Shown: positions 9,788-37,461, counted from the first letter of the stretch. The stretch: 64,000 nucleotides of DNA from Nannocystis bainbridge (GCF_028368995.1 NZ_JAQNDL010000001.1:3232001-3296000); one strand, 5' to 3'. Notes: a model not told the origin generated them from the letters alone. Made by a program: numbers and translations.

Positions 9788-11260
9788 TCACATCTCCTCC
9801 ATCACCGTGTCGAAGCGGAACCCGCCCCCGTCGGAAACGATGGTCCAGCGGATCACCGGCGCCGTGGTCTCCTCCGTCGCCGGGTCGTAGTCCAGCTCGC
9901 CCGAGGCGCCGCTGACGTTGATGCTCCGCTTGGCCTTGAAGGCGGTCTTGATGCCGTTCCAGGTGTTCGAGACGATGTCGTAGGTCTCGCCGGCGCTGAT
10001 CTTCGTCAGCCCCTCGGCCATCGCCGGACCCTCGATCTTCTGCCCGTTCTGGAAGAACGACCAGGCCGCGCCGTAGATGGCCAGCCAGGTCGCGTCGTAG
10101 GTGTGCGACGCGTACGAGGCGTCCATCGCCTTCTCGGGGAAGGTCGCGTCGTAGGTGGTGTTGAAGAACTGATAGACCTTGCGCGCCGTCGGCTCGCCGG
10201 GGAACACGCCGCGGACGTTGGGGTACAGCCCGGCCGCCTTGGTCTGGGTCTGTGTGATCACGTCGACGTTGTAGGCCGTGTCACCGAAGAAGATCTTGAC
10301 CGCGGGGTCGGCATAAAACGGGTTGGCGCCGGCCGCATTGAGGAAGCTCGTGACCTGGGCGACGTCCGAGGCGATGAAGACGATGGCGAAGTCCTCGGGC
10401 CCGGCGTGCTGGTTGGCGATCTCGACGACCTTGCTCGGGATCTCGCTCGGGCTCTGGTACTCGTCGAGGGTGATCGTGGCGCCGAAGTTCTTCTGCAGCT
10501 CGATCGCCAGGCCCTTGCCGTAGGTGTTGCCCTCGTAGACGACGACGGCGTCGCTGACGGCCTCGTCCTCCATGTACTGGGCCAGCTTGGCGCCGAGCAC
10601 CGAGTCCGGCGGCGCGGTGCGCCAGAACAGCCCCGGCTTGTCAGGGTCGATGTCGCTGAGGCTGGGGCTGGTCGCCGAGGGCGAGATGATCAGCGTGCGC
10701 TCGGCGTGCTCCGCCTTGGCCAGCTCCTTGTAGACGGCCTCGGCCAGGCCCGAGGTGCCGGGCCCGACGATCGCCGGCGTGCCCAGCTCGTCGACCAGGT
10801 ACTTCGCCGCCGCCACCGCGGCCTCTTCGGCGGTGAGGTCGTCGATGCTGGGGTCCTGCTGGTAGTCGCAGTGGACGATGGCGAAGTTGCGGCCGCCGAG
10901 GCCGCTCTTGTTGGCCTCCATCACCGCGAGGGTGGCCGCGTTGACGAGGATCCGGTCGCCGGTGGTCTCGGTGTGGTCGAACAGCGAGCCGAACACGATG
11001 AGGTCGCGGGACTTGTCCGGGGCCTCGAACAGGTCGACGGGGTACACCTCGTCGCAGCGCTCGAACACCTCCGCCTTCTCGCACAGCTGCTGCTCCCCGC
11101 AGGCGTACCCGAGCCCGAAAGCACCCCGGCAGTCGGCGCTGCTCGAGCAGGGCGCGTAGTCGACGCTGGAGACCGCCGAACAGCCGAGAATCGCCGCGAC
11201 CGCGGCCCCCAACACAGGCGGGCCGGCGCGACGAGAGAGGAGGTGCTGCATCGGCGGCAT
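9788..11260 (-). CDS. Periplasmic binding protein type 1 (LivJ/K-like) lipoprotein with Cys-rich N-terminus
   Basis: AIVGPGTSG, LIISPSATSPSL, FWRTAPPD, YGKGL, YDATWL, GASGELDYD motifs; lipobox ILGC. Confidence 0.85.
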   Translation of the reverse strand: MPPMQHLLSRRAGPPVLGAAVAAILGCSAVSSVDYAPCSSSADCRGAFGLGYACGEQQLCEKAEVFERCDEVYPVDLFEAPDKSRDLIVFGSLFDHTETTGDRILVNAATLAVMEANKSGLGGRNFAIVHCDYQQDPSIDDLTAEEAAVAAAKYLVDELGTPAIVGPGTSGLAEAVYKELAKAEHAERTLIISPSATSPSLSDIDPDKPGLFWRTAPPDSVLGAKLAQYMEDEAVSDAVVVYEGNTYGKGLAIELQKNFGATITLDEYQSPSEIPSKVVEIANQHAGPEDFAIVFIASDVAQVTSFLNAAGANPFYADPAVKIFFGDTAYNVDVITQTQTKAAGLYPNVRGVFPGEPTARKVYQFFNTTYDATFPEKAMDASYASHTYDATWLAIYGAAWSFFQNGQKIEGPAMAEGLTKISAGETYDIVSNTWNGIKTAFKAKRSINVSGASGELDYDPATEETTAPVIRWTIVSDGGGFRFDTVMEEM

Positions 11261-18039: not shown

Positions 18040-21000
18040 ATGGTCCCTCTCCGCCGCGTCCCCATTTTGACCGCCGACAAGGACATCAGCCTCGAGCAGA
18101 CGGCCATCTCGGCGGACGGGCACCTGTCCGAGCCGCCGGACCGCTCGCGGGCGAGGATCGCGTTCGAGGAGACCCGCATCGGCGAGTCGAGCGCGGGCGA
18201 CGAGCCGCTCGACTCGCGCCCGCCCGAGGCCGACATCGGCCTGCTCGAGACGCGCCACTCGGCGGCGCCGCACGGCGACAAGCTGCCGCGCCTCGGCGAC
18301 GGCGGCGACGAGCAGCGGATGAAGGCCCTCATCAAGGGCAAGCTGTTCCGCGCCCGCAGCACGCCGATCAAGATCGGTCGCTTCACGGTGCTCGACCGCC
18401 TCGGCGAGGGCGGCATGGGCGTGGTCTACACCGCGTACGACGACAAGCTCGAGCGCAAGGTCGCGGTCAAGGTCCTGCGCGGCGAGACCACCCGCGTCGA
18501 CGAGACCGGGCGCCACCGACTGATGCGCGAGGCGCAGGCGATGGCCCGCCTGTCGCACCCCAACATCGTCACGGTGCACGAGGTCGGCGACTTCGAGGAC
18601 CAGGTGTTCGTGGCGATGGAGTTCGTGCGCGGCATGAGCCTCGACGCGTGGATGCGCCGGCGCGACCGCTCGTGGCGCGAGGTCCTGGCGGTGTTCGTGC
18701 GAGCCGGCCGCGGCCTGCAGGCGGCCCACGCGGCCGGCATCATTCACCGCGACTTCAAGCCGCACAACGTGCTCGTCGGCGACGACGGGGCGGTCAAGGT
18801 CCTCGATTTCGGCCTGGCCCGGGCGATCGAGCACGCCGGCAGCGACGACCTGGCGATCACGGCCTCGAGCGGCGAGTCGGCCGGCCACGCGCTGATGGTG
18901 CCGCTGACGCAGACCGGCGCGATCATGGGGACGCCGGCGTACATGGCCCCGGAGCAGCACGAGGGCCGCACGGCCAGCGCCGCCAGCGATCAGTTCGCGT
19001 TCTGCATCTCGCTGTACGAGGGGCTCTACAAGCGCCACCCGTTCTCGACCGACTCGCTGGCGAGCCTGATCAGCGACGCGATCCTCGGCCGGGTCGCGCC
19101 GGCGCCGGCGGGCTCGAAGGTGCCGTCGCGGATCTACAAGGCGCTGCAGCGCGGGCTGTCGGTCGCCACCGATCGCCGGTTCGCGTCGATGGCCGACCTG
19201 CTGACCGAGCTGGAGCGCGACCCCGAGGTCCGGCGCCGGCGTGCATTCGCCGGGACCGCGCTGGCCGGGCTGGTCGGCGCGGCCGGCTTCGGCGCCGCCG
19301 CCATGCAGCAGCCCGTGGCGGCGCCGATCTGCGACGCCGCCGCCAGCGAGCTGGCCGGGGTGTGGAGCGGCGAGCGCGGCGAGGCTGTCCATTCGGCCAT
19401 GTTGGCGACCGGGGTGCCGTACGCCGCCGACACCTGGTCCAAAGTACAGCCGCAGCTGCAGGCCTACGCCGACGCGTGGGTCGGCATGCGCGGCGAGGCG
19501 TGTACGACCCACGCCTCGGGCCACCAGTCGGACCCGCTGTTCGACCTGCGCACCGCCTGCCTCGACCAGCGCCGGGCCAGCTTCGCCGGGCTGGTCGACA
19601 CGCTGGCCTCGGCCGACGCGGTGGTGATGGAGAAGGCGATGCAGGCGCTGGCGTCGCTGCCGACGATCGAGCGCTGCGGCGACGTCGCGGCGCTGACCGC
19701 CGAGGTCGCGCCGCCCGACGATGCGCGGGCGCGGGTGCGGGTGCAGGCGGTGCGCGAGGCGCTGGCGCGGGCGGCCGTGCAGGAGCAGGCGGGCCGCTAC
19801 CACGCCGGGCTGGCGACGATCGCTTCGATGGAAGGCGAGACGGCGGCGCTCGCTTACCCGCCGCTGCGCGGCGAGGTGGCGCTGCGCCGGGGCAGCTTGC
19901 AGATGGAGGCTGGCGACTTCCCGGCCGCCGACGCGGCGTTCGGCCAGGCGCTGTGGACGGCGGTCGCCGCCGACGACGCCCGCACCGCGGCCCAGGCGGT
20001 GTCGAAGCGGATGTTCCTGCGCGCGGCTCGCATGAGCCAGCCGGCCGAGGCGCTGCGGGACCTCGAGCTGGCGCAGGCGCTGCACGTGCGGGTGAAGGAC
20101 GACGTCGAGCTGACGGCCGAGTTCGAGAACAACCTCGGCGGCGTGGCGATGATGACCGGCGACTACGCCGGGGCCCGCGAGCACATGCTGGCCGCCGTGG
20201 CCGCGCGCACCGGGGCCGGCCGCCACGACACGGTCGCCAACGCGTTCACTTACAACAACCTCGGCTACCTCGCGGCCTACCTCGGCGACGCCGACGACGC
20301 GGCCCGCTACTACGGCAGCTCGCTGCAGCTCGGCGAGCGCCTGCTGGGCGCCGCCCACCCGAACGTGCTGCTGGTGCGCAGCAACGTCGGCACCGCGCTG
20401 CAGATGCAGAACCACCTGGCCGAAAGTACATCCGTGCTGCAGGCCACGGTCGACGCCCTGCGCGAGGCCGGCGCGACCGAGACGCCGACCTACGGGTGGG
20501 CGCGGGCCCGGCTCGGCTACAACGCGCTCACCGTGCGCGACCTGCCGCGCGCGCGCGCCGACTTCGAGGCCGGCCGGGCGGCGTTCCTGGCCACCGATCC
20601 CGACGAGACCAGCGCCCGCGAGGCCCTGTTCGGGCTCGGCCTGCTGGCCGCCGCGGAGCGCGACGTGAGCGGCGCGCAGGCGATCTACGACGACATCGTC
20701 GATCGCATGGAGCGCCGCTTCGGCGCCGACCACCCCGAGGCCCTGGTCGCCCGCGTGCGCTTCGGCGAGGCGCTGCTGCGGGCCGAGCGCCCGCGCGAGG
20801 CGCTACCGCAGGCCGAGCGCGTGACCGCGAAGTGCGAAGAGGCGACGCCCGACATGGCGGTGCTGTGCGCCGACGCGGCGCGTTTGACCGGCGACGCCCG
20901 CCTGGCCCTCGGTGAGGGCGAGGCGGCGAGCGAGCCGCTGCGCCGGGCGCTGGCGCTCTACGAGCAGGTGCAGGGCGCGTCGAGCCCGGAGATCGTGGCG

Positions 21001-21288
21001 ACGCTGCGGCTGCTCGGCGAGTCGGCGCTGGCGCTGGGCCGCCGCGAGGAGGCGGTCACCCACCTGCGCCGCGCCGCCACGCTCGCGGCCGCCGGCTTCG
21101 ACGCCGACCACCCGGACCTGGCCCGCACGCAATTCAGCCTGGCCCGCGCGCTGGCCGACGGCGGCGCAGCGACCCCGGAGGCCCGCGACCTGGCCGACAC
21201 GGCGCTGGCCGCCTACAAGCGCCGCGGCGAGGCGTTCGCCCCCGAGTCGCAGGCGATCGCGGGCTGGCTGGCGACGCTCCCGGCCTGA
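18040..21288 (+). CDS. Ser/Thr protein kinase with TM segment and TPR repeats
   Basis: LGEGGMGVVY, VAVKVL, HRDFKPHN, DFG, GTPAYMAPE; TPRs (LGAAHPNV, FGADHPEA); start uncertain. Confidence 0.93.
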   Translation: MVPLRRVPILTADKDISLEQTAISADGHLSEPPDRSRARIAFEETRIGESSAGDEPLDSRPPEADIGLLETRHSAAPHGDKLPRLGDGGDEQRMKALIKGKLFRARSTPIKIGRFTVLDRLGEGGMGVVYTAYDDKLERKVAVKVLRGETTRVDETGRHRLMREAQAMARLSHPNIVTVHEVGDFEDQVFVAMEFVRGMSLDAWMRRRDRSWREVLAVFVRAGRGLQAAHAAGIIHRDFKPHNVLVGDDGAVKVLDFGLARAIEHAGSDDLAITASSGESAGHALMVPLTQTGAIMGTPAYMAPEQHEGRTASAASDQFAFCISLYEGLYKRHPFSTDSLASLISDAILGRVAPAPAGSKVPSRIYKALQRGLSVATDRRFASMADLLTELERDPEVRRRRAFAGTALAGLVGAAGFGAAAMQQPVAAPICDAAASELAGVWSGERGEAVHSAMLATGVPYAADTWSKVQPQLQAYADAWVGMRGEACTTHASGHQSDPLFDLRTACLDQRRASFAGLVDTLASADAVVMEKAMQALASLPTIERCGDVAALTAEVAPPDDARARVRVQAVREALARAAVQEQAGRYHAGLATIASMEGETAALAYPPLRGEVALRRGSLQMEAGDFPAADAAFGQALWTAVAADDARTAAQAVSKRMFLRAARMSQPAEALRDLELAQALHVRVKDDVELTAEFENNLGGVAMMTGDYAGAREHMLAAVAARTGAGRHDTVANAFTYNNLGYLAAYLGDADDAARYYGSSLQLGERLLGAAHPNVLLVRSNVGTALQMQNHLAESTSVLQATVDALREAGATETPTYGWARARLGYNALTVRDLPRARADFEAGRAAFLATDPDETSAREALFGLGLLAAAERDVSGAQAIYDDIVDRMERRFGADHPEALVARVRFGEALLRAERPREALPQAERVTAKCEEATPDMAVLCADAARLTGDARLALGEGEAASEPLRRALALYEQVQGASSPEIVATLRLLGESALALGRREEAVTHLRRAATLAAAGFDADHPDLARTQFSLARALADGGAATPEARDLADTALAAYKRRGEAFAPESQAIAGWLATLPA

Positions 21289-21660
21289 CCCGAAGGACAG
21301 GCGATCGGAGGTCGCCGCCGGCCTGACCCGAAGGACAGGCGAGCGCAGGTCGTCGCCGGCCTGACCCGAAGGACAGGCGAGCGCAGGTCGTCGCCGGCCT
21401 GACCCGAAGGACAGACGAGCACAGGTCGTCGCCGACATGACCCAAAGGACATGCGGACGGAGGTTGGCCCGACCTGACTCGAGGAACAGGGGAGCACAGG
21501 TCGTATGGACATGACTCCAAGGACATGTGCGTGCGGCGCCGGACGGCAGCGCTGCCGATGACCCTAAGGACAGGCGAGCACAGGTCGCCCGCGACATGAC
21601 CCGCAGGACATGTAGTCGGGACGTCTCGCCGCGGCGCCGCGGCTGGCCCGAAGGACATCT
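21280..21660. repeat. 38-bp tandem repeat array, degenerating rightwards, each unit carrying TGAC-N6-GACA
   Basis: ccggcctgacccgaaggacaggcgagcgcaggtcgtcg-type units at 21280, 21318, 21356, 21394, then about five decayed copies; the first unit overlaps the kinase stop codon. Confidence 0.92.
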
Positions 21661-21669
21661 CACCGGAAC

Positions 21670-21710
21670 CACAAAAGCGAACGCCGCCCGGGCGTGGCCA
21701 GGGCGGCGGA
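21670..21710 (-). terminator. Probable intrinsic terminator of the RT operon
   Basis: Minus strand reads cgccgccc-tggccacgccc-gggcggcg then ttcgcttttg, ~35 nt after the RT stop; second hairpin ccgccgc-atc-gcggcgg at 21723-21739. Confidence 0.55.
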
Positions 21711-21744
21711 TCGTCAGCCAGTCCGCCGCATCGCGGCGGCCGGG

Positions 21745-23046
21745 CTACACGCGGTCGAGCGCCGCGAGCAGCTGCTTCCCGAGCTTCTTGTCGGTCATGT
21801 AGATGTAGGCGATCCGTCCGGCCAGGCTGGACAGCGTCTCGCCTTCCTTCAGCGGCTTGCCGTGGGCCAGGTTGTGCACGGCGGCCCGGACCTCGCGCTT
21901 GAACTCGCGGGTGACCCGGGGACCCTGCTTGCCGTTGACCACCAGGCCGGTGACCTGCTGGCGGCCGCCGGAGCGGTGCACGCGGGTCTTGTCCGGGTGG
22001 ACGGTGAAGCCCTCGGCGGCGGCGATGATCGAGATCCCGCCGAGCAGCCCGCCGACGTGCGGCTTGCCCTTGTGCTCGTTGGGCAGGCTGAACGTCAGGT
22101 CGTCGGCGTAGCGCGTGTATCGCCAGCCGAGCTTCTTGGCCAGGCCCTGCAGGCGGCGGTCGAGCCGCAGGCACAGCGTGTTGGTGATCGCCGGGCTGGT
22201 CGGGGCCCCCTGCGGCAGGCAACGTGGCCCGAGGGACAGGTAGTAGGTCGTGCCCTCGACCTCGGCCACGTGGCGCGGCGCCTCGGTGCACAGCAGCGCC
22301 AGCAGGGTCGCGATCTGCTCGCGGTAGCCGGCCTTGCGGAACACCCCCTTGACCCGCGGCAGCGTCACCGTCGGGAAGAAGTCCTTGAGGTCGACCTTCA
22401 GCAGGATCTGCGAGTCGCGGTGGACCGCCGCGTTGGTGGCCGTCGAGCGGCCGTGCAGGAACCCGTGGGCCGCCCCGTGGACCGGCAGGCGCTCCACCAC
22501 CTCGCGCAAGATCCACCGCTGCGCCGCCTTGAGCGTGCGGTGCGGGGCCCAGATCGCGCGCTTGCTGCCGTCGCGCTTGGGGATCTCGAACCGGTAGTAG
22601 TTGAGCTTCGTCGCCGCGTCGCGGTGGTACGCGAGGCGGCGCAGCTCGGCGATGCTGACCCCGAGCGCCTCGGCCAGCTCCTTCGGCTTGTCGAGCCTCG
22701 GCAGCTCGTTCTCCGCCTGGCGCTCCTCGGCGCCGGGCAGGTCCCACTTGTCGTGGTCGAGCTGGTCGTTCCAGAACACGCCCTCGCCGAGGTGGACCAG
22801 GTGCGAGGCCTTGTAGGCGAGCCACGCCTCCTTGGCCAGGCGCCGCTTCTCGGCCGCCTCGTCCTTGAGCGTCTTCTTGTAGCGCTCGAGCTCGGCCTTG
22901 CTCATGCTGTCGGTCGGCTTGCGCTCGACCAGGTAGCCCTTCTCCTTGAGCTGGGCCTCGATGTACTTGTCGCGCCCGCCCGCCGACTCGACGGCGCGCC
23001 AGGTCTCGAGCATGCGGCTGTAATCAATGCGGTTGGTATTCGCCAT
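21745..23046 (-). CDS. ret: Retron-type reverse transcriptase (Mx162-like)
   Basis: IPKRDGSKR, LPVHGAAHGF, region X NAAVH, DLKDFFP, LPQGAPTSP, catalytic YADD, region Y RQQVTGLVVN; N-terminal extension resembles my recollection of the Myxococcus Mx162 RT. Confidence 0.95.
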   Translation of the reverse strand: MANTNRIDYSRMLETWRAVESAGGRDKYIEAQLKEKGYLVERKPTDSMSKAELERYKKTLKDEAAEKRRLAKEAWLAYKASHLVHLGEGVFWNDQLDHDKWDLPGAEERQAENELPRLDKPKELAEALGVSIAELRRLAYHRDAATKLNYYRFEIPKRDGSKRAIWAPHRTLKAAQRWILREVVERLPVHGAAHGFLHGRSTATNAAVHRDSQILLKVDLKDFFPTVTLPRVKGVFRKAGYREQIATLLALLCTEAPRHVAEVEGTTYYLSLGPRCLPQGAPTSPAITNTLCLRLDRRLQGLAKKLGWRYTRYADDLTFSLPNEHKGKPHVGGLLGGISIIAAAEGFTVHPDKTRVHRSGGRQQVTGLVVNGKQGPRVTREFKREVRAAVHNLAHGKPLKEGETLSSLAGRIAYIYMTDKKLGKQLLAALDRV

Positions 23047-23052
23047 GATGGT

Positions 23053-24959
23053 CTACCCCGCGCTCCCGTCGAGAAACCCGCGCGCCTCGAGGTCGTCGAC
23101 GCGCTCGAAGAAGGCCGCTCGCGCCTCGGCGACCGAGCCGAACACGAAGCTCTGGACCCGCAGCTTGGCCGCTCCACGCGGGCCCCAGCGGATCCGGAGG
23201 CGCTGGCGGTCCAGCGACAGCTGCACGATCTCCTCCGACTCGCCCGTCGCCCCGGCCGCCACCGGCAAGCGCCGCGCGTAGGTCCGGGTCTCGAGCGTGA
23301 TCGTCCCGCGCTCCGAGCCGCGGGCCTGACGGCGCCGCTCCTCCTCCTGCGCCTGGGCGATCCGCAGCGCGATCAGGTGGGCGCACGGGCCCTCCTTCAG
23401 CTTGTGCTTGCGGTAGAACGCGCAGGTGCACTCGGCCCCGCGCACGCGGCCGTCGTCGTCGAGCGTCAGCTGCGGCCGGTAGTCGCGGCGGTCGGCGGTC
23501 ACGGTGACCTTGCCGGTCAGCTCGAGGCCGACGCCGTAGATCCGGTTCTCGCTGGCGATCTTGACCGCGCCCTTGGCCACCAGGTCGTGCGCCACCTTCT
23601 CGCGAGCGTTGCGGTAGACCAGGCGGCTCAGGTCGATCGCGCCGCCGAGCAGCGGGCGGTAGCGGTAGCGGTCTTCGGACAGGTCGTACATCACCTGGCC
23701 GTGCTGGCAGGCCTTCTGCAGCGCCGCGCGCACGTCGGCGATCGGCTTCTTGGTGCTCTTGGCCAGCTCGTCCGCGGACGCCACCCACACCTCGCCGAGC
23801 TTCTTCAGCACCGCCGAGAGCACGGCCGCCGCCTCCTCGCCGCGGTCGCGCGGCAGCAGTTGGTCGAAGCCGACCGCCTGCGACCAGTTGGCCGAGGTGA
23901 AGCCCGACAGGCCGAGCGTGAAGGTCACCGGGCCGGCGCGCAGCACGTAGAAGCTGGGCAGGCCCGAGCCGAGCAGGTGGATGTCGACGGTCTCGACGAA
24001 CGGCAGCAGGCGGCGCAGCAGGCTCAGGCGCCGGCGGCCCCAGATCCGCACCAGCGCCGGCTGGCGGCCGGTGAACGGGCCCGCGCTGGTGGCGAGCACC
24101 AGCTCCCACGGCTCGAGCACCAGCCGCGGCGGCTCGCCGGGCACCAGCTCGACGCGGACGCCGCGGCCGCCCTGCTTCTTGTCGGCGTTGAGCCGCAGGT
24201 GGCGCAGCACGTTGTAGAGGTCGATCGCGGCGATGCGGACCGCGGTGGTCGGCAGCGTCGCCGCCGCTTGCACCTGCAAGAACCCGCGCAGCCAGCTGTC
24301 GGGCAGCTGGATCGACTTCTCGATCACCGGCGGGCGCGTCGCGTCGCTGGCGACGCTGACCGCGTCGACGCCGATCGACAGCTTCGTCTCACGATAGCTG
24401 CGGATCCGCTGCACCCCGTCGAACAGCGCCTTGCTGTAGTCGACGTTGGTGGTGCCGTGCTGCAGCTCACCGCTGCGGTCGATGGCCGACCAGTCGATCG
24501 CCATCTGCGCGTAGGCGCCCTCGTCCTTGCTGAACACCTCGAACAGCAGCTTGTCGGGGTGCACGGTGACGACCGGGTCGAGCACCACCCACGCCGACGG
24601 GTCGTTGCGCGCCAGCCAGTCGAAGTAGGCCTGCTGGGCCTGCCACGCGCTCTGCCCGGCGGTCTGCTTCTTCAGCCGCTGGTAGGCGAGGTAGGCCGTC
24701 CTGTCCTTCGGGACATAACGGAAGTCCGAGCTGACGACCTCGTACATCGCCGACAGCGCCTCGCGCACCAGCAGCGGCTGCTTGACGGTGCCCTCGGCCC
24801 GCACCGGCGGTCGCTCGGTGTTGACGAAGATCTGTAGCTTCGCCGAGCTCTCGCCCGCCTCGAGCTGGCTGGCGCCGGCGTAGCCGAGGCGGACCGGCGT
24901 CCGCGGGTCGGTGAGCTGCTCCTCGGGCTTGCTCGACTCCGGTTCCTTGGTTTCCTCGC

Positions 24960-24963
<4 letters not shown>
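23053..24963 (-). CDS. SWIM zinc-finger protein with C-terminal WGR-like domain (retron-associated)
   Basis: CTC-x12-CAH SWIM motif; RLRIRWGPRG...FGSVAEARAAFFERVDDLEARGF WGR-like end; GTG start overlaps upstream TGA. Confidence 0.88.
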
Positions 24964-31651
<6,688 letters not shown>

Positions 31652-31652
<1 letters not shown>

Positions 31653-34600
31653 CAGGCGGCCTCCGGCGAGAGCTTGAGCTCGGGGTGAGCGGCGCCGACG
31701 CGGGCGAGGGCGACCAGGCAGGCCGCGCGCTCGCTGGCGCCGCGCGAGCCCATGAATTCGACCAGCACCGGCCCGGCCAGCGCCGCGAACACGGCGTCGG
31801 CCTCGGCCAGGTCGCGCATCGCCTCGACCAGCGCCAGCTTGGCCTTGCGCGCCGGCAGCGGCCGCAGCTTCCTGGCCTTCGGGGCATGTTCTTCGGGCAA
31901 GGTCACGACCTCGGCGTCGGCCTGCTTGGCCTCCGCGCTCGGCTTGGTCGGCGGGATCGTGAACAGCAGCCGGCGCATGAAGTCGCGCAGCGCCTCACCC
32001 GGGGCCGGCAGCCCGGTCGGGCGGACCGGCGCGCCCCGGCCCTCCGGCGGCTCGAGCTCCGCCTTCTTGGCAGTCGCGCCCGCGCTCGCCTTGGGCCCGG
32101 GCGCGGCCTTCTGCTCGGGCCGCGGCGCCGGCTTCCAGCCATCGGTGATGCCGCGGTCGCGGTACAGGTGCCAGATCGTGCGGACCACGAAGGCGACGAC
32201 GTGGCGGTCGGGGCTCTCGCTCAGGCGGAACAGCTCCTCGGGGATCGCCAGGCGAGCGTCGCGGCGGACCAGGCCCATGCCGATCGCGCGCACCTCGGGG
32301 ATCAGCGACTCGCAGAACGGGTAGACCGCGGCCGGCGTCAGCGTGGTCGGGTCGATGCGGAAGCGCTTGTTGTCGGCGTTGTCCTCGGCGAACAGCGCCT
32401 TGGCGAGGAACTCGCGGACCTCCGAGTACGGCGACTCGACCACGCCGAGCAGCTCGGACAGCGGCGGCGACCAGCGGGCCAGCTCCCAGCGCGCGAGCTC
32501 GAGGCCGAACTGGCGCACGGGCGCGCGGGTGTCGGTGAGCAGCGGCTTGACCCGCGCCCACGACAGGAACTCGGCCGGGATCTCGGCGCCCGGATCGACC
32601 GGGCGATCGGTGGTGGCGAGGCTGATGTCGGGGTGATGGCGGCGGATGTACTGGCGGGCGAAGTCGGCCTGCGGCGCGTCGGCCGGGCCGGGGCCGGTGG
32701 CCATCTCCCACAGCCGCTCGCAGCCGGCCTGCACCGAGTCGCCGCTGAAGCTGCGCTGCTCGCCGGCCAGCATCTGCAAGAACGCGGTCTCGGAGATGAT
32801 CTTGATCGGCGCGCCCTTCTCGACCAGCTTCTCGGCGGCGACCTGCTTGCTGCCCTTGCGGCCCTGGCCGTACAGCGGCGAGCCGTCGTCGCCGATGACC
32901 AGGTAGTCGAGCTTGGCGGTGACGCTGCCGGAGTTCTTGCCCTTGGCCGCGGTGACCTTCTCCTCGGCGTCGTCGCGCTTCATCGTCGCCAGCTTGCCGG
33001 TGAAGAGGAAGGTCTTGCCGCCGAGGTCGATGGTCTTGCTGCCCTTGGCCGCCTCGGCCTTCGGGGCCTCCTCGGACTTGGGCGCGAAGTCGGCGGGCAC
33101 CAGCGCCTTGGTCATGTATTCGAGGGCGAAGTTGCGGTACTGCGACTCGGGCCGCAGCGCCAGCAGCATCAACCAGTCGAACCCGAGCTGGCTCGGCCGG
33201 AACCGGCGCACGTCGCTGAGGAAGGCCAGCGCGGTGGCGGCCAGGCCCTCGTCGAAGCGGAGCTCGCGGGCCCACGGGCGGCCGCTGGCGATCAGCTCCG
33301 CGATCCACTTGTCCTCGGCCCAGGTCGGCTGGAACGCGACCGCGCGCCAGAACCCGGCGTCGATGTCCTCGGCCTTGATCTTGTCCTCGGAGATCCACTT
33401 CAACAGGGTCGGCCGCGCGTGCGGGTGCAGGACCATGCGGGCGAGGAAGTCCTTGCCGAGCTCCTCGCGCGGGAACTGCGACAGGGCGTCGAGGGCGAAG
33501 CTGGTGGCGCTCGCGGAGATCCGCGGGTCGTCGAGCAGGTCGCGGAAGAAGTCGGCGCCGAGCGTCTTGAAGCTGTGGACCTTGGTCAGCAGCTCCGAGG
33601 CGAACGCGAACACCTTCTGCCGGCTATCGAGCAGGCGGTCGGCGAACCACGCCGGGGTCAGCTCGCGCGCGCTGAAGTGCTTGCGCAGCGCGGCGACGGC
33701 GAGGTCGTGGCCGTGCTGGGTGCCGAGCAGGCGACCCCAGGCGTCGAGGCCGATGTCCTTGCGCGGGTCACGGTCGCCGAGCAGGGTCGCGACCAGCTTG
33801 CGCACCTCGGCGTTGCTGTTGTTGGCCAGCAAGATCAGGCGGTCGAGCGGCAGGTCGCGCGCGTGGGTGCGGGCGTAGTTGGCCGCGTAGGCGCGGGCCG
33901 CGTCGGCGCGCGAGTCGAGCAGCTGCAGCACCGGCTCGTGCAGGCCGAGCTCGCGGAAGCTGCCCTGGTCGAACTTCGGCACGTTGCCGAGCAGCCAGAT
34001 CACGAACTCGTCGACGGTGCCCGAGCCGACCGCGATCAGCCGCGCCGCCCACGGCGCCTCGACCTCGCGCAGGTTGGCGCGGAAGTCGGTCTTCAGCGCC
34101 TGCACCGTGAACTTGCGGACCTGCTCCGAGCGCGCCCGCTCGAGCAGCTGCAGCACCGGCCGCGGGGTCCGCCGCCACAGCTCGGCGAAGGCGCGCTCGC
34201 TCAGCTGCGGCTGGCCCGAGCGGTACAGCTTGAAGTTGCGGCGCGTGTACTTCTTGGTCTCGTGATGGAGGATGTGGTTGTAGACCCACGTGTTCTGCCA
34301 CGTGGTGCTGTCCTCGTAGTGGCGCAGCACCGCCACCGCGCCGTCGACGTAGGCCGGCGCGGCCGCCTCGCCGAGGCGCCGCAGGTACCGCCACGCGCGC
34401 CGCACCAGGTAGCCGAGCGTCGGCCGCGAAATCTCGCCGACCTTGCGCTGCTTGGTCGCGAACGCGTGGTCGAAGCGGACCGCCAGCGCGCCGAGGATCT
34501 CGACGTCGCCCTTGGCCTCGGCCTCCTTGAAGATCTGCTTGAGCCCGCGCCACGGGCCCCACCGCAGCGGGACCTTCTGGATCACGTCGAGCAGCGCGGC

Positions 34601-34930
34601 CCGCTCGTAGGCGCCGTCCGAGCGCTTCCACAGATCGAGCAGGACCTCGTGCAGCTGCAGCCGCGGCGGCAGCGGGGTCTCGGCCTCCTTGGCCTCGAGC
34701 GCGCGCATGCTGTCGATGCGGTAGCGGGCCCGCTCCTGCGGCTTGGAGCGCGTGAACTTCCAGCTCGTCAGGTGCTGGCTGAAGCTCGCGAAGGTGAGCG
34801 CGCCCTCCCGCGGCGGTTTGTCGGGCCGCGGGTCGGCGGCGCCGGCGAGGCTCACGATCAAGGTGGACAGTTCCGGGTCGCGGCTGTCCCACGCGCGGCG
34901 GATATCATCGAGGCTGAGTTCGAGGGCCAT
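31652..34930 (-). CDS. Helical-repeat protein with an internal BRCT domain (retron-associated)
   Basis: LGGKTFLFTGKLATMKRDDAEEKVTAAKGKNSGSVTAKLDYLVIGD is a ligase-type BRCT (~32770-33030); ATG 34930 has a GGAG RBS (frame open to 35014); TGATG overlap with next gene. Confidence 0.88.
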
Positions 34931-34956
34931 CGCCTGCTCCCGAGAAGGGGAGCCGG

Positions 34957-34986
34957 AGCATGCCGCGATACGTCGTAGGCTTTCAA
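34957..34986 (-). promoter_or_regulatory. Candidate sigma70-type promoter of the RT operon
   Basis: Minus strand TTGAAA (34986-34981), 18-nt spacer, CATGCT (34962-34957), ~27 nt before ATG 34930; TGTC-N6-GACA at 35008-35021 just upstream. Confidence 0.4.
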
Positions 34987-35148
34987 CTGTCGCGGTCGCG
35001 CCCAGGCTGTCCATTTGGACAGGTGATGCGCTCGATCCCGCGCCGCGATCGGGGCATCCCCCGGCATTTGGGTGGCGCTCGCGGGGCCATCCTTGCAGGT
35101 ACAGATCGCTCCGAGATCCTCCGCGCGGCCCGTGATAAAAGCTTCGGC

Positions 35149-35619
35149 ATGACGACCTCCCGGACCCCGTGGACCCTCGCGCTGTGCCTCGCCTCCCTCG
35201 TCGCCTTGCCGAGCTGCAAGAAGGAAGCGACGACGTCCCCCGACGGCGACGGCGGCAACGGTGACGCGGCGGCGGGCGACGGCGGGGGCAACGGCGGCGG
35301 CGGGGGCGGCTCCGGGGACGTGAACGAGGAGCCCCTCACCGCCGACTCGTTCGAGGAGGCGATGCAGGCCAAACAGGGCGATGTCGCCGACTGCTTCGCC
35401 CAGGCCAAGGCGGCCAAGCCCGAACTGGCCGGCAAGCTGGCGATCGACGTGACGGTGGCCGGCGACGGCACGGTGTCGGCGATCAAGTTCACCGACTCGA
35501 GCACGATCAAGGAGGCGAGCATCACCTCCTGCATCGAAGAGAAGGCCCGCGGCTGGAAGTTCGGCAAGACCAGCGACGGCAACCCGATGACGCTGGGCTA
35601 CTCGCTCAATCTTTCATGA
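35149..35619 (+). CDS. Lipoprotein with AgmX/PglI C-terminal (TonB-C-like) domain
   Basis: Lipobox LPSC, Gly-rich linker, CFAQAKAAKPELAGKLAIDVTVAGDGTV...SCIEEKARGWKF. Confidence 0.82.
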   Translation: MTTSRTPWTLALCLASLVALPSCKKEATTSPDGDGGNGDAAAGDGGGNGGGGGGSGDVNEEPLTADSFEEAMQAKQGDVADCFAQAKAAKPELAGKLAIDVTVAGDGTVSAIKFTDSSTIKEASITSCIEEKARGWKFGKTSDGNPMTLGYSLNLS

Positions 35620-36128
35620 GGCCCGACGCGCGGGGGATCTCCTCGCCTGTCCTCGAGGACAGGCCGATACCGACCGCCCGCGCCGCGCTGCTCGCCTGCC
35701 TCCCCCTCGCCTGCAGCTCAAAGACCGAAGGCAGCGCGAGCGCGACCACCGACCCGGGCACCACCCAGCCGGAGTCGACGTCGACCACCGGCACCTCTGC
35801 CGCACCGACGTCGGCCACGGGCTCGTCGTCGACGGCGACCACTACCGCCGGCCCGAGCACCTCGACGACCTCGATGACGACCTCGACCTCGACGGGCGTA
35901 GAGACCGGCCCGCTCGGGGCCTGTGCCCTCGAGCCCGTCACGGTGCGCTGCGACAACTTCCTCGTCGGCTACTACTTCGATCCAGTGACGATGACCTGCA
36001 AGTCGTTCGACCACGGCGAGTGCGGCGGCGAGGTCGTCCCGTTCGAGACGCTCGCGGACTGCCTCGTCGCGTGCGAGGGCTGCGAGACCGACTGTGAGAC
36101 CTCGACAGGCTCTTCGAGCGGCGCTTGA
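35616..36128 (+). CDS. Lipoprotein with BPTI/Kunitz domain
   Basis: Lipobox PLAC, T/S linker, Cys spacing C-x8-C-x15-C-x7-C-x12-C-x3-C with YYFD, CxxF, GxCGG, FxTxxxC. Confidence 0.85.
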   Translation: MRPDARGISSPVLEDRPIPTARAALLACLPLACSSKTEGSASATTDPGTTQPESTSTTGTSAAPTSATGSSSTATTTAGPSTSTTSMTTSTSTGVETGPLGACALEPVTVRCDNFLVGYYFDPVTMTCKSFDHGECGGEVVPFETLADCLVACEGCETDCETSTGSSSGA

Positions 36129-36234
36129 GCACGCGTCGGCACGATCGCGGCACCGAACGAGCGAGCGCCAGTCGCCGCCCTGGGGCGCGTTCGCGTGACA
36201 GATCCGAACCCCGGTGGCATGCTGTGCGGCGTTC

Positions 36235-37461
36235 ATGTCGATCGCCCGCCTCCAGCTCAAGGACTTCACGGTCTTCAAGCAGGTCAGCTTCGAGTTCTGC
36301 CCGGGGATCAACGTGCTCATGGGCGAGAACGGCACGGGGAAGTCGCACGTGCTCAAGGCGATGTACGCGGCGCTGCGTGGGACCGAAGAGGTCGCCGAGT
36401 CGAAGAATGGTCCACTGACCGACGAGACCCGCCCTGAGATCCTGTACTTCGTCAAACTCATGTGGGTCTTTCGCCCAGATTCGCTCTCTCCTCGTCGCCT
36501 GCTCCGCCGCGGAAGCGACAAACTCTGGGAGGTCCAGCTCGTCGATGCTCGCAGAAACAAGCTGAACATGCGCTGCGAGCCGCGGGGACGCGAATTCGCG
36601 TCGGTGGACTCCGACCTGCAACCTCAGCGCTCCCTGTTCGTCCCGCCGCGCGAAGTCCTGGCGATGTACAAGGGCTTCGTCGCCGCCTACGAGGGCCGCG
36701 AACTCGACTTCGACGAGACCTACTACGACATCTGCAAGGCCCTCGGAGCAGCCCCGCTCCGCGGTGCGCGTGCAGAAGCGATCCGAAACCTGCTCGCGCC
36801 CTTGGAAAAAATCCTGGGCGGGAAGGTGCTGCTGAAGGGCGATCGCTTCTACGTGCAGCAAGGCGACGCCGAGACCGAGGCCCATCTGCTCGCCGAAGGA
36901 TTGCGGAAGATCGCCGGCCTCGCCTACCTCGTGGCCAACGGTTCGCTGACGCGTGACACGGCGTTGTTCTGGGACGAACCCGAGGCCAGCCTGAACCCGC
37001 GGCTCGTCGTACAGGTGGTCGAATTCCTGCGCGCGCTGGCACGCGCCGGCGTGCAGGTGTTCCTCGCCAGCCACGACTTCTTGTTGTTGCACCGACTCTC
37101 GCAACCGACCGAGCATGCGCTCGATTCGGAGGTGCCGATCCGGTTCTTCTCGTTGCATCGGCCGAAGCCGGACGCGCCGGTCGAGGTCGAGACCGGGGCG
37201 ACCCTCGCGGACATCGAGCACAACGCGATCCTCGACGAGTTCGCTCGCTACTACGACGACGAGCGCGCGTACTCCTGGCGAGAGATGACGGCCGATGCGC
37301 CCCCGCCCCCGCCGTCGAGGCAGCCGGGCAAAAAGGTCCGCAGGGCCGCCGCGAAGACTCCTGCGCGATCCGTCACCGCCAAGGTCCGTACCCGGAAGGT
37401 CCCAGCGGGGCGATCGAAGAAGCAGCCTTCAGCGCGCAAGAAGGCTGCGAAGAAGTCATGA
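36235..37461 (+). CDS. ABC-type (AAA_15/AAA_21-like) ATPase with basic C-terminal tail
   Basis: Walker A GENGTGKS after INVLM, signature-like LAEGLRK, Walker B/D-loop FWDEPEASLNP, H-loop ASHD; Lys/Ala/Arg-rich tail. Confidence 0.88.
   Translation: MSIARLQLKDFTVFKQVSFEFCPGINVLMGENGTGKSHVLKAMYAALRGTEEVAESKNGPLTDETRPEILYFVKLMWVFRPDSLSPRRLLRRGSDKLWEVQLVDARRNKLNMRCEPRGREFASVDSDLQPQRSLFVPPREVLAMYKGFVAAYEGRELDFDETYYDICKALGAAPLRGARAEAIRNLLAPLEKILGGKVLLKGDRFYVQQGDAETEAHLLAEGLRKIAGLAYLVANGSLTRDTALFWDEPEASLNPRLVVQVVEFLRALARAGVQVFLASHDFLLLHRLSQPTEHALDSEVPIRFFSLHRPKPDAPVEVETGATLADIEHNAILDEFARYYDDERAYSWREMTADAPPPPPSRQPGKKVRRAAAKTPARSVTAKVRTRKVPAGRSKKQPSARKKAAKKS

Follow-up and report, generated by a model that had tools for sequence, protein, structure and literature searches.

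The protein operon of a type XIII retron in Nannocystis bainbridge and two unlinked msr-msd genes that probably supply its template RNA in trans

A DNA stretch of 64,000 nucleotides from Nannocystis bainbridge (GCF_028368995.1, NZ_JAQNDL010000001.1:3232001-3296000; hereafter the window, meaning the whole stretch that was analysed) carries on its minus strand a four-gene operon whose last gene encodes a retron reverse transcriptase (RT). The genes stand in the order HEAT/WGR (HEAT1), HEAT/ARM (HEAT2), SWIM and RT, and each of the four products is recognized by PADLOC models for type XIII retrons (Table 1). In this study, no msr-msd gene, the gene of the noncoding RNA (ncRNA) that serves a retron RT as template, was found in the window, and two full-length msr-msd genes were found on another contig of the same genome. 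The family to which these two genes belong is linked to orthologous operons elsewhere. Supply of the template in trans had been one of the possibilities raised in an earlier note made from the sequence alone, and it is the one that the present data favor: the locus is probably the protein part of a split type XIII retron, in which the ncRNA genes are independent and unlinked and one RT has two templates.

The RT of the window is of full length with an N-terminal extension, it contains the YADD, NAAVH and VTG motifs, and RT_XIII, the type of retron clade 10, was the best of the 51 RT models of PADLOC for this protein. In a phylogenetic tree it groups with the Mx162-type RTs. Moreover, the RT is linked to a SWIM zinc-finger gene (cluster 114), with HEAT/ARM and WGR-like accessory genes upstream, as in type XIII, the class of Mx162, Mx65, Sa163 and Ne144 according to Mestre et al. 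(2020, PMC7736814). The Pfam SWIM match in the SWIM protein was weak (E 0.0042, below cut-off), and HEAT1 showed a weak BRCT match. The true start of HEAT1 is probably the ATG at 34930, as the alignments with relatives do not begin before residues 23-35. The sequence confirmed the 6-nt spacing between the SWIM and RT genes that the earlier note had reported, with the stop codon TAG at 23055-23053, the start codon ATG at 23046 and bases 23052-23047 between them. The remaining junctions overlap, as had also been stated: HEAT1 and HEAT2 at 31652, and HEAT2, which ends at 24960, with SWIM, which starts at 24963 (24960-24963). A terminator-like hairpin after the RT was likewise recovered, since 4 terminator-like sites were found past the RT stop at 21695-21675 (-) versus 0.2 expected from shuffles. 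The plausible promoter placed before the first gene was not confirmed by a strict sigma-70 scan of 34880-35200, which called none. An element, GGCATGCTC, is conserved 40-100 nt before HEAT1 in Nannocystis loci (window 34940-35010; L083-L090, L093, L098 and L100), and in the window it is preceded by TTGAAAGC; this element may be the operon promoter, and the sigma-70 scan does not call it.

Table 1. Features of the retron operon in the window (positions counted from the first letter of the window)
Feature	Position	Strand	Evidence or remark
Retron RT, 433 aa, type XIII	21745-23046	-	PADLOC RT_XIII E 3.1e-159; Pfam RVT_1 E 1.2e-19
Spacer between SWIM stop and RT start, 6 nt	23047-23052	-	No room for an ncRNA
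SWIM zinc-finger protein, 636 aa	23053-24963	-	PADLOC SWIM_XIII E 9.1e-194 over residues 24-540
Large WD40/HEAT-repeat protein (HEAT2), 2230 aa	24960-31652	-	PADLOC HEAT-ARM_XIII 2313.7 bits; Pfam HEAT_2 E 2.1e-71
HEAT/ARM protein with WGR-type region (HEAT1), first gene of the operon, open reading frame of 1120 aa	31652-35014	-	PADLOC HEAT-ARM_XIII 1218.8 bits; WGR_XIII E 1.1e-45
Divergent intergenic region 5' of the operon	34931-35151	-	msr-msd site in relatives; none here
GC-rich hairpins and then a T-run downstream of the RT stop, likely operon terminator	21675-21746	-	Inverted repeats I15 and I17

The absence of a template RNA in or beside the operon was supported by several searches. Retrons have been described as "contiguous transcriptional cassettes" (Mestre et al. 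2020, PMC7736814), and the operon of the window holds no msr-msd contiguous with its RT in one cassette. A canonical msr-msd was sought in the two places where, according to the earlier note, its presence would have told against that note (34931-35148 and 21289-21744), and none was found. In agreement with the same note, no long inverted repeat of the msd type was found in 21000-35300, where the best arms were only 18-30 nt long with 71-89% complementarity. A search with nhmmer, using a profile of the cognate ncRNA family on the whole genome at E<=10, gave no msr-msd in the window, and a covariance model (R1, msr part) run with filters off on all 64 kb reached a best E value of only 0.79. Rfam found only tRNA in the window at the gathering score, and in 20500-36500 at E<=1 it gave only two sub-threshold matches of the miRNA type. 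These two matches come from a long run of GAC codons (poly-Asp) at 26850-26990 inside the 2230-aa HEAT protein, a stretch whose fold is no more stable than those of shuffled sequences (z -1.49). Furthermore, the tight SWIM-RT junction is conserved: of 31 related loci (L001-L031), 30 have an estimated gap of -7 to +53 nt; in the remaining locus, L026, the SWIM match ends early, so it was left out of the estimate. The RTs of these loci, which come from Nannocystis, other Polyangia and Planctomycetota, are 64-98% identical to the window RT.

The DNA upstream of HEAT1 homologues was examined in 29 loci (2.5 kb each), and an msr-msd was found directly before the HEAT1 homologue in 12 of them, mostly from Pirellulaceae, Gemmataceae and other Planctomycetota, together with one Myxococcales metagenome-assembled genome (MAG). 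The other 17 loci, including all 10 Nannocystis loci, showed no msr-msd in the 2.5 kb upstream of HEAT1, and nhmmer gave no match upstream of HEAT1 in the eight other Nannocystis loci L083-L090. The cis ncRNAs are marked by paired ends and a long variable stem, together with a GCGGCGTTGCGCCG hairpin and a CACAAGGAAGGCT box. In all five genomes tested, an RT 63-67% identical to the window RT lies 11-12 kb downstream of the cis ncRNA on the same contig and strand, and their SWIM-RT gap is short and without an ncRNA. Two complete Tundrisphaera genomes are laid out likewise, and in them the RT starts 11.7 kb past the ncRNA. The planctomycete and myxobacterial orthologues thus have the four-gene operon, the short SWIM-RT gap and the ncRNA family in common with the window system, and they differ from it in the place of the ncRNA, which adjoins their operon, 60-100 nt before HEAT1, whereas it is megabases away in Nannocystis.

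Several features of the cis loci suggest that the ncRNA is an independent gene even where it adjoins the operon, because it has promoter-like and terminator-like sites of its own. A strong terminator-like hairpin with a T-run lies between the cis ncRNA and HEAT1 (14 pairs in L108 and 15 pairs in L107), and in L106 each of the tandem ncRNA copies has a promoter-like site, with a third such site before the protein gene. In classic retrons, the ncRNA and the RT share a single promoter. In the clade studied here, the ncRNA would be a separate gene and the RT would always meet it in trans, which may be why its relocation is tolerated. Tandem cis copies with differing msd stems were also observed before HEAT1, three in L101 (2-1104) and two in L106 (1392-2229). 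Several templates per RT recur in this clade.

A search profile was built from 14 cis ncRNAs and run against the whole genome that contains the window (G000). Two full-length ncRNA copies were found on another contig, at G000:C5:226168-226407 (E 1.1e-47) and 226496-226734 (E 4.9e-46); they share a strand and are separated by about 90 nt. Both copies have paired ends, two msr hairpins and a long msd stem-loop; they fold with a terminal duplex at z -8.25 and -8.16 relative to shuffles, and the sequence of the stem differs between them. An alignment of 34 members of the family showed compensatory, two-sided changes at 35 of 61 consensus pairs, and the copies therefore belong to a real structured RNA family. 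Rfam gave only matches to miRNA-type and CRISPR-repeat families, far below the gathering score, for the C5 ncRNAs, and hence it holds no model for this family. A GC-rich hairpin with a T-run was seen by eye 3' of each copy. In addition, short partial copies of the msd part are scattered through the genome (C1:725768-725829, C2:867074-867137, C1:1547849-1547925, C1:1154788-1154847, C1:3879060-3879122 and C2:1810518-1810559), and one such copy is 98% identical to C5 copy 1 over 60 nt. These pieces bring to mind the "retrotransposed msDNA" in the titles of Lampson's papers in the reference list of Simon et al. 2019.

The neighborhood of the C5 ncRNAs contains a gene for a 238-aa protein directly upstream on the same strand (L122:9355-10071, G000:C5) and a CDF cation transporter gene downstream. 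The 238-aa gene is kept just upstream of the ncRNAs in three Nannocystaceae genera (10 of 19 ncRNA loci), and the unlinked site is therefore old. As a possible retron part, this gene was set aside as a neighbor; it has no Pfam or NCBIfam match and was not seen at the cis loci in other phyla.

The separation of the ncRNA from the RT operon is conserved in the family. In all five further Nannocystis genomes, exactly two tandem ncRNA copies lie far from the RT operon. The complete chromosome of G052 has the copies at about 7.77 Mb and the RT 3.4 Mb away, at about 11.15 Mb, and in the record of N. exedens DSM 71 (G051) they are at about 9.29 Mb and 3.66 Mb, respectively. When 41 evenly sampled genomes of the family were searched for both parts, the RT was found at >=69% identity in 11 genomes and the ncRNA in 10 of these 11, never adjacent to the RT and always either on another contig or, in G040, 3.2 Mb off on the same contig. 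Other layouts were found as well. In Minicystis rosea, 1.87 Mb separate the ncRNA from the RT; in one Polyangiaceae MAG, the distance from the RT stop to the ncRNA beyond it is 8.6 kb; and in G037 and G044, which belong to another genus of the family and have a more distant RT, two ncRNAs directly follow the RT. The order of SWIM, RT and two ncRNAs at L150:5226-9065 (G037) is a third ncRNA position within type XIII. Given that the ncRNA may be distant, 8.6 kb past the RT or directly after it, its placement with respect to the protein genes varies with unusual freedom in this group. The RT tree does not resolve the number of ncRNA moves, and its backbone inside the clade is open.

The closest known comparison is Retron-Mxa1 (Mx162) of Myxococcus xanthus, a type XIII retron in which a SWIM protein with the same C-terminal tail is followed by the RT, as in the window. 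The Mx162-type RT is about 50% identical to the window RT, and the two RT clades are sisters (98/96 and 98/85). Moreover, the Mx162 ncRNA is homologous to the C5 family, as the profile matches Mx162-type loci at E values of 1e-4 to 3e-6. The two systems differ in layout. The Mx162-type loci of Myxococcus and Corallococcus have an estimated SWIM-RT gap of 381-509 nt with an obvious msr-msd in 27 of 29 loci (in the other two, the SWIM gene is missing and the contigs are truncated), the arrangement that the earlier note had named for Mx162, whereas the gap in the window is 6 nt and the ncRNA is unlinked. In addition, when the 4 kb upstream of the RT were compared at E<=1e-5, 28 of the 29 loci gave no match to the HEAT2 protein, L039 gave one short piece, and none of the 29 matched the HEAT1/WGR protein.

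A second comparison concerns Retron-Nex1 (Ne160) of Nannocystis exedens, for which Simon et al. (2019, PMC6868368), citing Lampson and Rice 1997, described msr-msd repeats that are duplicated and stand "without an RT within a kilobase" and left the RT to "a distant RT or alternative element". This description fits the two tandem C5 copies as well as those in the N. exedens DSM 71 record (G051), and the msd landmarks of the C5 copies, with a spacing of about 158-159 nt, are a further point of agreement with Ne160; the C5 genes would then correspond to the Ne160 genes of the literature. Ne160 has no RT assigned in the account of Simon et al. 2019, and its assignment to the window RT is proposed here; the window RT is likely the missing Ne160 RT, the two being likened by description. 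Our literature searches found no paper linking this RT to Ne160, with the supplements of Mestre et al. 2020, which possibly list ncRNA positions, lying outside the search; for a naturally trans-encoded retron ncRNA, they returned nothing beyond Simon et al. 2019 and Mestre et al. 2020.

RNA libraries were consulted for cover of the C5 ncRNAs within 701 bases, in the form of contigs assembled from environmental samples. Short contigs over both ncRNA bodies were found in the RNA libraries of three studies (X7, X17 and X20), and those of X7 cover L122:10200-10384 with 0 differences and 10526-10715 with 3. No contig of these three libraries covers the spacer between the copies, and on the flanks they have only one weak X17 contig, of the opposite strand, at 10100-10149 (depth 2.2). 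All 30 bins of the stretch are covered by a DNA run. In X7, a small soil RNA library, short contigs with depths of 466-750 lie on the conserved boxes that flank the msd stem (L122:10234-10377), and their joint skips the stem. These deep contigs probably represent abundant related retron RNAs, or multicopy single-stranded DNAs (msDNAs), of other strains with different stems.

Some of the observations weigh against the supply of the template by the C5 genes. First, a simple sigma-70 and terminator scan called no promoter and no terminator around the C5 copies. Second, one genome (G032) has the RT and no ncRNA was found in it, at 88% completeness. Third, the library contigs are a weak hint, given that they come from environmental samples and that DNA can occur in RNA libraries; they cannot prove transcription, ends or strand. 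Fourth, the link from the window RT to the C5 RNAs is a reading of genome sequence, and the proposed identity with Ne160 derives from one sentence of a review. Finally, one genome (G042) has the ncRNAs together with an RT that is not of the window type.

The last observation bears on the question of which RT would use the C5 RNAs. The genome has two RT_XIII genes only, namely, that of the window and that of another locus, L078 (RT at C1:2369405-2370817), so the distant msr-msd genes might belong to the L078 RT or be relics, leaving the window RT without a template and acting otherwise. The RT of G042 is of the L078 type, and no window-type RT was found there; that genome, however, is just 84% complete. 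Against such ownership, L078 (G000:C1:2367905-2372317) already has a different msr-msd of its own, which lies in about 400 nt between a SWIM gene and a 517-aa RT, the classic position, and shows clear inverted ends and a long stem; the profile of the C5 family does not match this ncRNA with nhmmer. Furthermore, seven genomes have members of the C5 family in physical linkage with a window-type operon, and in G024 and G034, which carry the ncRNA, the window-type RT is the sole RT_XIII match. Ownership by L078 is accordingly unlikely, and the C5 RNAs would be used by the window RT rather than by the second one. L078 may also be compared with Retron-Nex2 (Ne144), since it is of type XIII (RT_XIII E 3.4e-185) with a SWIM gene upstream; it differs from the window operon in its classic layout with the msr-msd in the gap of about 400 nt and in its RT, which is 45% identical. 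That L078 is Ne144 is a guess.

It is less probable still that the retron has become domesticated or is in decay, with an RT that makes no msDNA any more. Type XIII correlates with host 16S, and possible domestication has been suggested (Mestre et al. 2020, PMC7736814). Opposed to decay are the full length of the window RT with its YADD motif kept, the intactness of the four genes and their conservation in 30 loci, the conservation of the ncRNAs with compensatory changes, and the appearance of the ncRNAs in RNA libraries. The further suggestion in the earlier note that the RT works without a canonical msDNA is not needed, because a cognate ncRNA exists in the genome.

The same note had also considered a template hidden in the window, either in coding sequence such as the 3' end of the SWIM gene, which extends about 290 nt past the PADLOC profile match, or downstream of the RT, in the hairpins and the array of 38-nt repeats, and we give this scarcely any credence, for no covariance-model or Rfam match and no long stem accompany it, the SWIM tail is a conserved protein segment, and the DNA downstream of the RT is unconserved among relatives. 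Changes in the SWIM tail at codon positions 1, 2 and 3 numbered 434, 450 and 779 (1759 codons, 20 loci), and on this excess at third positions, which is protein-type evolution, the SWIM 3' end was rejected as a hidden ncRNA. The tail itself (23053-23343), which spans about 96 aa and bears an RWG..RG motif, is conserved as protein in those 20 loci and receives no name from Pfam (E<=10) or NCBIfam; from the motif it might be called WGR-like. The array consists of about nine tandem units of 37-38 nt at 21280-21660, between convergent genes downstream of the RT, and its units have the hairpin form [CA]TGTCC-N4-GGNCA[GT]. This motif, in two forms, occurs 662 and 929 times in the genome versus 0-6 times for control motifs, so that the array was rejected as template; it looks like a REP-like Nannocystis element that was locally amplified. 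At the opposite end of the operon, the divergent gene at 35152-35619 (+) begins with a lipoprotein-like signal, MTTSRTPWTLALCLASLVALPSC, and is kept beside the operon in close Nannocystis loci.

If the template is supplied by the C5 genes, the window would hold the protein-coding half of a type XIII retron that is split in two. The operon would be transcribed alone and end at the terminator past the RT. The RNA half would consist of the two tandem msr-msd genes with differing msd stems at the unlinked C5 site, each of which is probably a small transcription unit of its own. The RT protein would find the C5 RNAs in trans through their conserved msr hairpins, prime from the conserved G just past the terminal duplex and copy the msd part into msDNA. 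The landmarks that bound the msd in the C5 copies are 158-159 nt apart, from which an msDNA of about 160 nt is estimated. A further and more tentative proposal, which we hold to be quite possible, is that one RT serves at least two unlinked, separately transcribed ncRNA genes with differing msd stems, so that two distinct msDNAs would be made for one set of HEAT/SWIM effectors; the variable stems would be the part that gives specificity, and the partial msd copies scattered through the genome would have arisen from msDNA that had returned to the chromosome by integration.

These findings bear on how retrons are recognized. Retrons are defined and sought as an RT with an adjacent ncRNA, and throughout the clade described here the ncRNA is probably a gene of its own, which adjoins the operon in some phyla and is megabases away in Nannocystaceae and Minicystis. 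Pipelines that search only beside the RT would call such RTs ncRNA-less and such ncRNAs orphans. Moreover, the present locus offers a concrete candidate RT for the Ne160 msr-msd repeats. Supply of the template in trans and several templates per RT are features of the use of retrons in genome editing, and this system would be a natural example of both. If one RT does serve several such genes, Nannocystis would run a natural "multiplexed" retron.

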